Under the pieces are notes generated by a model. It was given only the letters and a program-made list of their open reading frames with translations, made no database searches and was not told where the DNA came from. A DNA stretch of 64,000 nucleotides, from contig OX597822.1 of assembly GCA_951406725.2 (NCBI GenBank), forward strand, positions 40,486,001-40,550,000, read 5' to 3'. The position numbers and the translations under genes were made by a program. How positions within the stretch are numbered: the stretch's first letter is position 1; the number at the start of each line of letters is the position of its first letter. Positions 21,327-48,431 of the stretch are shown here, piece by piece. The DNA comes from Octopus vulgaris (lineage: Eukaryota).

Positions 21327-22020
21327 ATGTTGCTATTGTTGCTGTTGTTCTTGTTACTGATGTCATCATCCTTCATATCGTTGTTTTGTACAGCTGCATT
21401 CTGTGTCAATACGTATGGCATAGATTAAGAAAAGGTATTAAGTGATTAAATACTTTCAACTGCCTGAGCTGCCCCCCCTCACACCACTTCACCCCCCCCC
21501 CTTCCTTCATTGACCATTCAGCATTACAATGCATCAGAAAAACGCTCTCAAAAACACTGAAAGAAAACATGGCTGTATGTACGTGATATAAAAGTTAAAA
21601 AGAACGCTTCTTGTACGCATATACGTGATACTACACAGGTTCAAAAAGATTTCGTGCATGCGTGATGTAGGAGAGTAAAGTGTGAGCGAAAACAAAGATA
21701 TAAGTTTGTAAACATAGAAAGGTACTGAATATTGATTTATGTGTGTGTGTATATACACACACACACACACACACACACACATATATATATATATATATCT
21801 TTCATCTTTTTCTTTTACGTTTTTAAGTCAATAGACTGCGGCCACACTGAGGCACCGCTTTGAAAATTTGTTTGTCGAATAAATCGACCTCAGTACTTAT
21901 TTTATATATATATATATATATATATATATATATATATATATATATATATATATATATATATATATATATATGAAAAAACAAGTAAAAAATAGAAAATGCT
22001 AAAATAATTTTATAGTGAAC

Positions 22021-22066
22021 ATTTCAGTACCGGTTTCGGTCATTTTGAGACCTTTTCAACTGTAAC
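22021..22066 (-). ncRNA. Minimal hammerhead ribozyme (inverted copy pLTR)
   Basis: Reverse complement of 26024-26069. Confidence 0.75.
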
Positions 22067-22752
22067 GATTAAATAATTAAATTTAGAAAAATTAGAAGAA
22101 AAGTTTTTTAAAAAAAATATTTCTATAGTAGTGTTCAGATTTAAGTGGCATTCTGCCTTTCTCTGACTCCCTTGTTTGCACTTGTGTGTTCGAGGTAGTT
22201 GTGAGTTCTTGGTAGGGTAGTAGAGGGAAGGCTGGTGAGGGAAGGGGGTGGGAGAATCTGGGAGTGCCCTGATGGTCGTATTTTGAATGGTCAGTGGCGG
22301 CTGGCAGTCTCAGTTCAATTCAGGATTGTTTATAGAATTAGCGTAGGTGTTATACTAAAAAACATTAGTGACAAACTTAAGGGGTAGGGGGTGGAGAAGA
22401 AGAAGAAGAAGAAGAAGAAGAAGAAGAAGAAGAAGAAGGAGAAGGAGAAGATGATGGTGATGGTGGTGATGATTATGACGACGATGATGATGATAACGAT
22501 GATGATGAAGAAGAAGAAGAAGAAGAAGAAGAAGAAGAAGAAGGAGAAGGAGAAGATGGTGGTGATGATGATGACGCCGATGATGATGATAACGATGATG
22601 ATGAAGAAGAAGAAGAAGAAAAAAACAGAGAAGGGAGAATATGAATGGGTGTAAATATAGCTATGAAGGGGCTGATTAGTAATGGATTCTATGGAGTGTA
22701 GTATTTGTGTGTGTATATATATTTTTTTCTTTTATTCTAAAGTTGAGGTATA

Positions 22753-24906
22753 TTAATTGTTTGTCGTAGACCCGTTAAGAAGTGGCTTGTATTTTGTAAT
22801 AAAGAGATTTTCTTTACTTATTCTTTGTCTCGAGGTTGTATCGTCCCTAAATTGGTAGAGGGGGAAAATTCTGAAGTTTGGTGTTTTTTTGTTGGCGCAA
22901 GTATCTATGTGTTGGCTAAAAGCTATTTTTCTGTTTTGGGGAATTTTTATCTGGGATCTGTGCAGGGCCATTCGTTTACGCAAACCATTTTTTGTTTGGC
23001 CTATGTACTGCTCTTGACACCCGGAGCAGGTTAGTGAGTATATTAGGTTCTCCGAAGCACATGTGAAGTTGCTTTTCACTGTAAACCGTTGTCCCTGTTT
23101 GAAGGAGAACTCCGAACCCTCGATTAGATAGTCGCATATCCCGCAATTGGGTCTTCCACATTTTTTTACTGTCGGCTTCTGTGTTGAAGAGTGAATTCGG
23201 GCTTGTGTAAGGAGACTTTTCATGGATCTAGGCTGTCTTTTGCTTTTTATGATCGTGTGTGTTTGGAGGATTGTGTTCATTCTGTGGTCTTTTTTTAGGA
23301 GGGGTATGTTGTGGAGGATGGTGTCGAAGGCTTCGTTATTGAGAGGGTTGTGTGTGGAGATGTATGGTAAGGCTTTTGGTTGTAAGTTTTTCTTTGATTT
23401 GGGATGTCTCAGTTCCTTGATGTTAAGTTGAAGGGCACGTTGAATGCACTTGTCAATAAGTGAAGGTGGATAGTTCCTGGTGATTAGGGTATCTTTTAGT
23501 TCTTGTAGTCGTGTGTCTCTGGTGTTTGCGTTAGAGACTATAGTGCATATCCTTTTTGCTAGATTGAAGGGGATATTCATCCTGGTGTGTCTGGGGTGGC
23601 ATGAATTGAATGGAAGATATTGCTTAGAGTCTGTAGGCTTATAGTATATGTCTGTTTCTATTATATTATTAGCTTTCTTAATGAGGATATCGAGGAAGGG
23701 GAGTTGTTGTTGGCTATATTCCATCGTGAATTGGATGTTTACGTCCAGTCCGTTTAAAATTTTCTGGAATTCTATGAGTTTTTCTATATTTTTATGCCAA
23801 AGGATGAAACAGTCATCTAGATATCTCTTCCAGTTGTTTTCTATGTAGATGGAGAAAGGGCTGCCATATCTTTCTAGAACCTTACGATACAGACTGATCT
23901 CTAGGTATCCTATGACTAGGTTGGCAAAGGAGGGGGCCATTCGTGTACCCATCGCAGTCCCCGATTTTTGTCGGTAGAAGTTGTCATTGAAGGCGAAGAA
24001 GTTATTTTCCAGGATGAATTTAACCCCTTCTATCACAAATTCTTTTTTGATGCGGTGTGGTAGTTCGTTGGCGTGATTCTCTAGCCAGAATTGGATTGCC
24101 TCTAGTCCTAGGTTGTGGGGGATATTGGAGTAGAGGTTGACTACATCGAAGGATACCAGTATGGTGTTTTTGTTTATAGTATTCGGTAGGTGATTGAGCA
24201 TATCTAAGTCGTCCCTTATATAGCTTTTGACATGTTTGAGGAGTGGTTTTAACAGGGTGTCTAAAAAGTTACTGAGGCGGTGGGTTTCGCATGCGGGACC
24301 TGCTATTATGGGTCTCAATTTGAGGTCATTAGGATTAGGGACTTTAATTATTTTGTCTGTAGCTATCTTGCATGCGTTGCTTATTTTTTCACTTTTGTGG
24401 ATCTTAGGTATACCGTAGAATTGGCTAGTTTTACTTGTGAAATTGGTCATATAATCATATTCTTTGTCGGTGAGCCCTGCTTTGTATGGGTTTAATATGG
24501 ATTTTAGTTCCCTCATTATTTTTTGTTGACTGTAGTTTTGTGCCTTTTCATAGTATGTTGTGTCTTCCAGCATAGAAAGTACCAAAGTTATGTAAAATGT
24601 CGTATCCATTAAGACAACAGCACTCCCTTTATCGGCCTCTTTGATTGTTATTGTTTTATCTAGTTTTAATTTGTTCAACTCAGCCCATTCTTTTTTGCTG
24701 AAGTTTGGTTTGTGTTTTTGTTTGTGCATATGTTGATATGGGTAATTTGATATGTGGTCACAGAAATCATCAAGTGTTTTATTCTTACCTTTCGAGGGGG
24801 TGTAGTTACTCCTATTTCTGGCTAACGATTCGTCCTCGTTGTATTTATCGTATAGCTCCTCAGTAAGTCTTAATTTTCTGCAGAATTCTGCGATGTCTTC
24901 TTTCAT
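22753..24906 (-). CDS. PLE RT-GIY-YIG, identical copy
   Basis: Translation identical to 27558-29711. Confidence 0.93.
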   Translation of the reverse strand: MKEDIAEFCRKLRLTEELYDKYNEDESLARNRSNYTPSKGKNKTLDDFCDHISNYPYQHMHKQKHKPNFSKKEWAELNKLKLDKTITIKEADKGSAVVLMDTTFYITLVLSMLEDTTYYEKAQNYSQQKIMRELKSILNPYKAGLTDKEYDYMTNFTSKTSQFYGIPKIHKSEKISNACKIATDKIIKVPNPNDLKLRPIIAGPACETHRLSNFLDTLLKPLLKHVKSYIRDDLDMLNHLPNTINKNTILVSFDVVNLYSNIPHNLGLEAIQFWLENHANELPHRIKKEFVIEGVKFILENNFFAFNDNFYRQKSGTAMGTRMAPSFANLVIGYLEISLYRKVLERYGSPFSIYIENNWKRYLDDCFILWHKNIEKLIEFQKILNGLDVNIQFTMEYSQQQLPFLDILIKKANNIIETDIYYKPTDSKQYLPFNSCHPRHTRMNIPFNLAKRICTIVSNANTRDTRLQELKDTLITRNYPPSLIDKCIQRALQLNIKELRHPKSKKNLQPKALPYISTHNPLNNEAFDTILHNIPLLKKDHRMNTILQTHTIIKSKRQPRSMKSLLTQARIHSSTQKPTVKKCGRPNCGICDYLIEGSEFSFKQGQRFTVKSNFTCASENLIYSLTCSGCQEQYIGQTKNGLRKRMALHRSQIKIPQNRKIAFSQHIDTCANKKTPNFRIFPLYQFRDDTTSRQRISKENLFITKYKPLLNGSTTNN

Positions 24907-25043
24907 TTCATTGTAGTTGGGGTGTTGTGGGGTGGGTGTAAACTTGAGTCCTTTGGAAAGTATGTTTATTTGGTTTGCTGTTAGTTCCTTGTGAGTTAGA
25001 TTAATAATTTTTATTACTTTTGGTTCCTCCTGCTTGTTTGGTG

Positions 25044-47198: not shown

Positions 47199-47293
47199 TC
47201 TCTGGACTATGCATAGTTTCGGCAAACTTTGGTAAACAAATTAATTAAATTAAAGTAAATTTATTTACAACTGGCGTGCCTTGTCAGCAGAGA
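47199..47293 (-). ncRNA. Family B hammerhead, core mutated (CTGACAA)
   Basis: Perfect helix I and GGCA/TGCC helix II base, with a G8->A substitution. Confidence 0.7.
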
Positions 47294-47659
47294 AGCCAAG
47301 GACGAGTATATGTCCACGTGGCGATGGTAAAGAAGCTTCCAGTCTATATGCTCTAAATTTTCAAAATCTGCCGCAATGGCGCGGTCTTCTCAGCAGCAAA
47401 TATAAACTGCTGATTTAATTTCAAAATTAGCCAAAAAATCATTAATTAATAAATATAAGGGTAGCAAAAATTCTAGAAAAAATTCTCCGCTACCAGCGGT
47501 CTAGCGAGAAAGAGAAGATAGTCAAAGACTATATAATATACATTCAACAATATTTGCTGTTGAGAAGACCGCGCCATTGCGGTAGATTTTGAAAATTTAG
47601 AGCATATAGACTGGAGGCTTCTTTACCATCGCCTCGTGGACATATACTCGTCCTCGGCT

Positions 47660-47754
47660 TCTCTGCTGACGAGGCACGCAAGTTGTAAATAAATTTACTT
47701 TAATTTAATCAATTTGTTTACCAAAGTTTGACGAAACTATGCATAGTCCAGAGA
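47660..47754 (+). ncRNA. Type I hammerhead ribozyme with extended helix II (family B)
   Basis: tctctg CTGACGA ggca...gtaaataaatt/aatttgtttac...tgac GAAA ctatgcatag TC cagaga. Confidence 0.85.
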
Positions 47755-48431
47755 TGAAAGGGGTAAACGTTTTTATTTCTCTTTCAATTTCAGAATTACA
47801 ACTAGTTAGCGATTTGAGTTTGGCTGCTCTTTCTAGTGAGTCGAATATCCTATTATGGCCATTCCTGATATTGTTGAATGTATATTATATAGTCTTTGAT
47901 TATCTTTTCTTTCTCGCTAGACCGCTGGTAGCGGAGAATTTTTTCTAGAATTTTTTGCTACCCTTATATTTATTAATGATTTTTTGGCTAATTTTGAAAT
48001 TAAATCAGCGGTTTATATTTGCTGCTGAGAAGACCGCGCCATTGCGGTAGATTTTGAAAATTTAGAGCATATAGACTGGAGGCTTCTATACCATAGCCTC
48101 GTGGACATATACTCCTCCTTGGCTTCTCTCCTTCCCTTGATGCCCAATAAACACATGCTTATTTTGCTCAATGGTTAACCCAGCGCTGGTCTTGACCTGT
48201 GAGGAATTACTTGTATTTATACTTGTTACATGTGTGCTAAATAACTCTGGCATTGATTGTACTTCAGTCCCGGAACAGCAGAAACTGCTGAGCGGGTGAC
48301 TAGAACTGATTTCTGAATCATAAGCTCACACACATCTGACATGCAACAAAACTTCATAACTCCAAATCCGCAAACGTTTCACTCATAACAACGCTACAAA
48401 AGATCCGCCCCCGCGCTCTCTAAATCTCTCT

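Follow-up and report, generated by a model that had tools for sequence, protein, structure and literature searches.

A shared insertion footprint of a Penelope-like element and two retrozyme-like repeats at (TA)n tracts of the Octopus vulgaris genome

A 64,000-nucleotide (nt) stretch of Octopus vulgaris DNA (hereafter the window; GenBank assembly GCA_951406725.2, contig OX597822.1, positions 40,486,001 to 40,550,000 of the forward strand), rich in simple repeats, carries one intact Penelope-like element (PLE), named PLE-1, with a reverse transcriptase (RT), a GIY-YIG endonuclease and a Neptune/Nematis-type linker, and two non-coding tandem repeats, A (unit of ~475 nt) and B (unit of 465 nt), which are 72% alike and have one hammerhead per unit. 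All three are inserted as a minus-strand arm on the left and a plus-strand arm on the right, as a sequence-only reading of the window had claimed and as self-comparison and direct reading bear out. Judged from the sequence of these and further copies, their common footprint probably stems from a Penelope-type RT/GIY-YIG complex that copies one RNA from both ends of a broken (TA)n tract.

Three inverted insertions in the window

The features of the PLE-1 insertion are listed below, with S1 and S2 denoting the 3′ end sites of the arms and 3′ end positions counted from the hammerhead cut.

21903–21971: (TA)n target left of PLE-1
21965–25816, minus strand: PLE-1 left arm, 5′-truncated inside open reading frame (ORF) 1, 3′ end at S1 (+64)
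22753–25107, minus strand: identical ORF2 copy in the left arm
25815–25816: PLE-1 central junction, TC microhomology
25815–30529, plus strand: PLE-1 right arm with partial pseudo-long terminal repeat (pLTR), ORF1, ORF2 and pLTR, 3′ end at S2 (+98), giving a 34-nt tail
22025–22063, minus strand, and 26027–26065 and 30395–30433, plus strand: minimal type I hammerhead of the pLTR, U3-A8 core, palindromic stem III
26130–26176, plus strand: predicted hairpin with S2 in the loop and S1 just 5′ of the stem
26186–27420, plus strand: ORF1, ~410 amino acids (aa), without Pfam family
27357–29711, plus strand: ORF2, 784 aa, with RT, CX4CX2C linker and GIY-YIG with CCHH
27381–27387, plus strand: U_UUU_UUA heptamer in the ORF1 frame, inside the 64-nt ORF1/ORF2 overlap (27357–27420)
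30525–30715: (TA)n right of PLE-1

The two PLE-1 arms are 100% identical across 3191 nt. In ORF2, Pfam detects RVT_1 above its cut-off (E 3.5e-8) and GIY-YIG just below it (E 4e-4), and the motifs GLKF, DKG, CX4CX2C (linker) and CCHH can be read directly. PLE-1 thus has the RT with C-terminal GIY-YIG endonuclease of the endonuclease-containing (EN+) PLEs, and also the inverted partial copies forming pLTRs, the pLTR hammerhead and the one-ended tail of 30–40 nt known from PLEs. A single ORF is not found: ORF1 and ORF2 overlap in different frames, here as in other copies and in three sister families described below. The Hydra-clade pattern of PMC8557442, which lacks GxKF/Y and CCHH and has DKT in place of DKG and a CxCX5C linker, does not fit an element with GLKF, DKG, CCHH and CX4CX2C, nor does the N-terminal endonuclease without hammerhead of Naiad/Chlamys, while the Neptune/Nematis linker (CX2-5CxxC) and CCHH are both present. 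By its motifs PLE-1 is assigned to the Neptune/Nematis type, either clade; relatives of its protein stand at 43–61% in a protein comparison.

In each of the four PLE families, as seen in the window copy and at L147, L166 and L174, ORF1 runs into the RT-endonuclease ORF, ORF2 is in the -1 frame and there is an in-frame heptamer, U_UUU_UUA in three families and U_UUU_UUU in PLE-3; in PLE-1, ORF2 has no ATG ahead of the first conserved motif. The overlap is a candidate for programmed -1 frameshifting, from which one protein may result. Frameshifts occur in the rotifer Athena elements, and a literature search for an ORF1/ORF2 -1 frameshift of this kind in PLEs found none. The U3-A8 variant of the hammerhead core is known from Schistosoma PLEs (PMC4209133).

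The insertions of A and B comprise the following features.

37084–37129: (TA)n left of A
37127–38416, minus strand: A left arm, 2.7 units, 3′ end at S2 (+237), hammerheads at 37356–37453, 37833–37932 and 38308–38405
38415–38416: A central junction, GA microhomology
38415–38837, plus strand: A right arm, 0.9 unit, 3′ end at S1 (+135 to +143), hammerhead at 38612–38709
38833–38886: (TA)n right of A
46930–46972: (TA)n left of B, at the tail of a dispersed repeat resembling a short interspersed nuclear element (SINE)
46974–47553, minus strand: B left arm, 3′ end at S2 (~+230), hammerhead at 47199–47293
47550–47553: B central junction, ATAT microhomology
47550–48129, plus strand: B right arm, ending at +382 without (TA)n, hammerhead at 47660–47754

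A pattern search identified the hammerheads of A and B as type I, stem II being long and stem III palindromic. Because Rfam gave no gathering-level match, and no hammerhead among 89 weak matches for 36900–48300, the assignment rests on the core pattern, on stems I and III, where A differs from B by compensatory changes, and on conservation of the core, which is intact at 68/73 A sites and 51/60 B sites. Neither repeat has a long ORF; arms reach 6.9 units in A and 2.0 units in B, and copies are dispersed over many contigs. With non-coding tandem units and a type I hammerhead in each, A and B fit non-LTR (long terminal repeat) retrozymes, for which self-cleavage is predicted. Among the public records listed as containing them, none was of RNA.

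The central overlaps TC, GA and ATAT are as the sequence-only reading gave them. It had further placed five of the six 3′ ends at TA-like runs of the element lying next to genomic (TA)n, which holds in part. Five ends do abut (TA)n, the exception being the right end of B at 48129, probably the result of a later deletion; however, a real TA-like patch of the element is present at only three of the five, namely 8 nt at PLE +64, a perfect 4 nt at PLE +98 and 13 nt with one mismatch at A +143, whereas for both A and B the match to TA at the left end spans only ~2–3 nt.

The footprint across the genome

Searches of the genome (2.8 Gb in 227 contigs) gave 1328 candidates for A, 2508 for B and 2072 for the PLE pLTR, of which the best 39, 40 and 40 were scored. 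The stretches examined, window copies included, numbered 39 for A, 40 for B and 37 for PLE (116 in total; two PLE stretches are one long tandem). One pair was counted per stretch, second arms shorter than 30 nt were excluded by filter, and a 3′ end was scored as TA-flanked if the adjoining TA run was at least 10 nt long. Head-to-head arms were found in 86 of the 116 stretches (30/37 PLE, 25/39 A and 31/40 B), and the remainder were mostly single arms between (TA)n tracts (11/14 A, 6/9 B and 4/6 resolvable PLE), some of which carry a second arm too short for the filter. (TA)n adjoined 65/66 PLE, 62/64 A and 59/75 B 3′ ends, compared with 5.4% of random window positions; three rows are omitted from this count, two being simple-repeat mis-hits and one a B copy beside an A locus. 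The (TA)n preference and inverted geometry first read from the window therefore hold in the examined stretches of all three families.

The 3′ ends fall mainly at two sites per family: +64 (29 ends) and +97/98 (37) in PLE, +141–143 (35) and +227–238 (26) in A, and +137–146 (19) and ~+225–237 (41) in B. Where both ends are visible, most insertions pair one arm at S1 with one at S2, as in 28/28 PLE pairs, 22 A pairs (with 2 S0+S2 and 1 S1+other) and 18 B pairs (with 4 S0+S2 and 9 S2+other), and same-site pairs are absent (0/84 across the three families). S0 is a minor third 3′ end near +70 to +77 in A and B, used at L049, L053, L076, L080, L084 and L093, which replaces S1 and pairs with S2. In PLE-2, a further family, 9/9 classified pairs were S1+S2. 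The element matches TA perfectly over 5–8 nt at S1 in every family, and over 4 nt (PLE), 2–3 nt (A) and 1–2 nt (B) at S2, while PLE leaves a 9-nt TA patch at +3680 unused, as A and B do patches of 5 nt. The weak match at S2, together with these unused patches of equal or greater length, indicates that position sets the sites, although pairing may help at S1.

Interrupted TA motifs of ~20–50 nt on both flanks at L056, L110, L121, L141 and L142 are possible target-site duplications. A flank-shared informative 10-mer was found at 6/78 loci (null 1.7%), 5 of them plausible but inseparable from earlier expansion of the repeat.

The two arms of an insertion resemble each other more than arms of different insertions do, with divergences within and between insertions of 0.10% vs 0.22% for PLE (n=28), 0.28% vs 1.39% for A (n=23) and 3.2% vs 6.1% for B (n=22; p<1e-4 in each). 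Arm reach was compared in simple pairs (24 PLE, 21 A), complex loci being left out. The S1 arm extended further 5′ in 8/24 PLE pairs, by up to 2.8 kb, and the S2 arm in 10/24; for A the counts were 9/21 and 9/21, and for B, where the query biases the comparison, 1 and 13 of 14. The shared variants point to one template for both arms, and the finding that either arm may be the longer favours two cDNAs over fold-back of one. The 5′ ends were not enriched at the hammerhead cut (1/65, 3/75 and 1/71 in the three families) and arms cross hammerhead sites, suggesting that the template was an uncleaved multimer or a circle.

Central junctions were mixed. Of 31 in PLE, 9 had overlaps of 2–5 nt, 7 of 1 nt, 4 were blunt and 11 carried inserts; the 25 in A comprised 9 with at least 2 nt, 2 with 1 nt, 4 blunt and 10 with inserts. 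In B, 22/32 appeared to carry insertions, a figure made unreliable by copies lying 5–10% off the reference. Among insert-free junctions, overlaps of at least 2 nt made up 9/20 (PLE), 9/15 (A) and 8/10 (B), compared with a null of 15–18%, so that the microhomology of 2–4 nt by which the arms had been proposed to join is enriched but is a minority outcome and not the rule. Seven of 10 PLE inserts of at least 5 nt were largely copied from within 55 nt (no null computed). A mix of microhomology, blunt ends and templated inserts is typical of polymerase-theta end joining.

Several other features were noted. The SINE-like dispersed repeat occurs at 30716–31160, 34857–35582, 44074–44518, 45861–46346 and 46660–46847 (copies 70–92% alike), and B is inserted in the TA tail of one copy. 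The window also contains a broken RT of the long interspersed nuclear element (LINE) type on the minus strand at 9376–11686 (RVT_1, E 4e-29), a minisatellite of 26 copies of 34 nt at 6184–7056, and a 192-aa frame at 18014–18592 without Pfam match, which we take to resemble the integrase tail of an LTR retrotransposon. Further hammerhead families lie in the flanks (L157:4124, L032:821-1528, L040:776, L127:3108, L155:7948-8177, L169:6358 and L183:7311), among them a U3-A8 family with 360-nt spacing, a relative of B (74%), and one with a short A/B motif ahead of its (TA)n end.

Two-ended priming and its alternatives

The (TA)n targeting, the geometry, the rule of one S1 and one S2 arm, the shared arm variants, the independent arm lengths and the mixed junctions are observed directly, and two-ended priming from one RNA is their likely origin. 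A Penelope-type complex, probably one of several families in the genome, would open (TA)n, where its endonuclease would cut both strands. One DNA 3′ end would prime at S1, aided by pairing with the 5–13-nt UA patch, and the other at S2, where it would be placed by the protein or the RNA fold with pairing of only 1–4 nt. Both cDNAs would extend 5′-ward through the uncleaved tandem or circular RNA and halt at variable points, after which host end joining, polymerase-theta-like, would connect them in the middle, leaving microhomology, a blunt joint or a templated insert. Where one end stays unextended a one-armed copy would result, and A and B would ride in trans without pLTR homology. The idea that both ends of the break prime thus survives as two independently primed arms on one template, but AU-rich annealing patches do not account for both ends. 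More tentatively, a dimeric Penelope ribonucleoprotein (RNP) might hold one RNA and start two cDNAs at two structurally set sites flanking the (TA)n break, and ribozyme circles without homology to the element might hijack it through two start sites, ~90 nt apart, that they evolved independently. If so, the genome records a rule followed in vivo, by which a single template yields one S1 arm and one S2 arm, and this one rule would explain the Penelope tail and the inverted copies alike.

Inverted arms, a one-ended tail and a (TA)n target occur in A and B as in PLE, and on this sequence evidence some PLE very probably mobilises both in trans. Trans action by PLE enzymes on the hammerhead RNAs had been proposed for PLE-1 and its neighbours; PLE-type machinery is indeed likely, but nothing ties it to PLE-1 itself, and we doubt that PLE-1 is the specific partner. 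Protein and family searches, in which the best 59–150 of 6,000–30,500 candidates were scored, found three more intact families (PLE-2, PLE-3 and PLE-4) with proteins 47–67% identical, and all four families end at two TA patches ~31–45 nt apart in (TA)n. No autonomous PLE with an A/B-like pLTR was present among the best-scoring candidates, comprising 20 protein-search loci (one being PLE-1) and 20 further loci. Derivation of A and B from PLE-1 was considered on the basis of homology to an autonomous pLTR or 3′ end and was rejected, such homology being absent.

That PLE-1 does partner A and B, and that (TA)n selects both ends by pairing with AU-rich patches, is the alternative that survives best and is nonetheless unlikely. 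The identical footprint of PLE-1, A and B and the strong S1 TA patch in all three families agree with it, as would a 9-nt word common to PLE-1 and B just before S2, a weak and post hoc match (shuffle p=0.024, one of four comparisons) that was set aside. Yet the other three intact families end in the same way, A and B have no homology to PLE-1, and the weak S2 match and the unused patches contradict an annealing rule. Proximity adds nothing, since the flanks hold 10 further elements of these six families (PLE-1 to PLE-4, A and B) in 412 kb, or ~1.6 expected per 64 kb, which makes three insertions in one window ordinary and implies no link to PLE-1.

Several observations weigh against two-ended copying by a Penelope-type complex, or against the evidence for it. 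With blastn at word size 7, neither A nor B matches the PLE-1 unit or any of 40 loci from other PLE families, their tails are ~90–95 nt long vs 31–45 nt in the four PLE families, and the idea of a common RNA fold around the start sites was rejected, the predicted PLE-1 hairpin having a similar counterpart in PLE-2 but being absent from the A and B folds. Eleven of 75 B ends lie at no fixed site, 2 of those 11 being TA-flanked. With the PLE and B queries an S2 arm is assured or favoured, though the identity of its partner is not, and the similarity of arms could partly come from gene conversion or from polishing in the youngest copies. In the Poseidon PLE of Anolis carolinensis, which cuts and extends both strands in vitro (PMC11167929; Frangieh et al. 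2024), the start sites are described as not homologous to the cut DNA and both strands as using both sites, whereas here S1 matches TA and each arm ends at a site that its partner does not use. Finally, 6/24 PLE junctions are near-symmetric (L109, L114, L116, L127, L131 and L141), compared with 1.35 expected by permutation (p=0.00085), which fits both cDNAs running off one broken RNA end or a minority folding back.

This last result also suits a single priming event followed by fold-back or self-priming of the nascent cDNA or an antisense RNA, the endonuclease resolving the second arm at the S1 patch, a route that would account for the shared variants and the S1/S2 rule and was proposed for rotifer PLEs in PMC3846280 and for the tail in PMC8557442, as far as the available text of each goes. 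Fold-back requires the S1 arm to nest within the S2 arm, however, and the S1 arm is the longer in a third of PLE pairs and 9/21 A pairs; as a general route it is already contradicted by arm lengths, and we consider it improbable. Still less probable is movement of A and B by another RT, such as that of a LINE, or satellite amplification, with the likeness to PLE arising from easily broken (TA)n. A and B do lack a sequence link to any PLE, LINEs are named as alternative candidates in the available text of PMC7229834, and the window does contain the remnant of a LINE RT; but two fixed internal ends, one per arm, long overlapping inverted arms and the lack of poly(A) match PLE tails, which according to the available text of PMC8557442 are not seen in non-LTR target-primed reverse transcription, and the copies are scattered on many contigs. 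An assembly or library artefact, which the complete identity of the PLE-1 arms and the lack of a contig bridging the window A or B junction among those listed from public runs (short contigs, possibly of other individuals) might suggest, is scarcely credible given arms that end at different, family-fixed sites, B arms diverged by 3%, junctions with templated inserts, and other head-to-head joints in contigs of other public runs, one each for A and B. In contigs of two public runs the S2 end of A runs into (TA)n; one of the runs with such ends or joints could be the assembly's source.

Comparison with known systems

In L1 twin priming, two DNA ends prime on one RNA and the resulting inversion is joined by microhomology, as proposed here. 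The L1 arms, however, are non-overlapping with a variable second site, whereas here each of the two sites is fixed and the arms overlap by kilobases.

PLEs have been reported to form inverted copies, to target microsatellites and to carry a tail, described as optional and at one end (PMC8557442, PMC3846280). As characterised in the available parts of these sources, the Neptune/Nematis EN+ PLEs resemble PLE-1 in their C-terminal GIY-YIG, GxKF, DKG, CX2-5CxxC linker and CCHH, and in the pLTR hammerhead, the inverted 5′-truncated copy, the one-ended tail of 30–40 nt and the microsatellite targets. Instead of the canonical single ORF, PLE-1 has a separate ORF2, read in the -1 frame, together with a slippery heptamer; the near-strict tail of its family (28/28) is a second difference. 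Poseidon shares with the system described here an AT-rich target, two internal start sites bracketing the tail, an uncleaved RNA template and a predicted dimer, according to the available text of PMC11167929.

Already known, therefore, are inverted PLE copies, tails, two start sites and the hypothesis that PLEs mobilise animal retrozymes (PMC7229834, Cervera and de la Pena 2020; 10.64898/2026.07.22.740005, Li, Clavereau and Pollet 2026). Insertion-footprint evidence for retrozymes would be new: no report of inverted two-arm retrozyme insertions, of a one-site-per-arm rule or of a one-template test was found in the open-access literature, and the word "inverted" is absent from PMC7229834 and appears once in the text examined of 10.64898/2026.07.22.740005. 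The analysis does not show a new class of element. It bears on the origin of inverted PLE copies and one-ended tails, named as open in the available text of PMC8557442, by drawing from a young, high-copy genome a quantitative footprint that separates two-ended priming from fold-back.

Mobilisation of retrozymes by PLEs has so far been based on co-occurrence, hammerhead likeness and some pLTR homology, and with the footprint a trans assay can draw on precisely delimited RNA substrates, on a known target and on four candidate enzymes. A and B resemble the metazoan non-LTR retrozymes in their dispersed non-coding tandem units, the type I hammerhead in each and the co-occurrence with PLEs (PMC7229834, as far as available). 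They differ in their units of 465–477 nt with a long stem II, in lacking detectable pLTR homology, whereas 24/57 Xenopus families matched Repbase elements, nearly all of them PLEs (10.64898/2026.07.22.740005, available text), and in their inverted two-arm insertions with fixed ends, a form not described in the available portions of either source.

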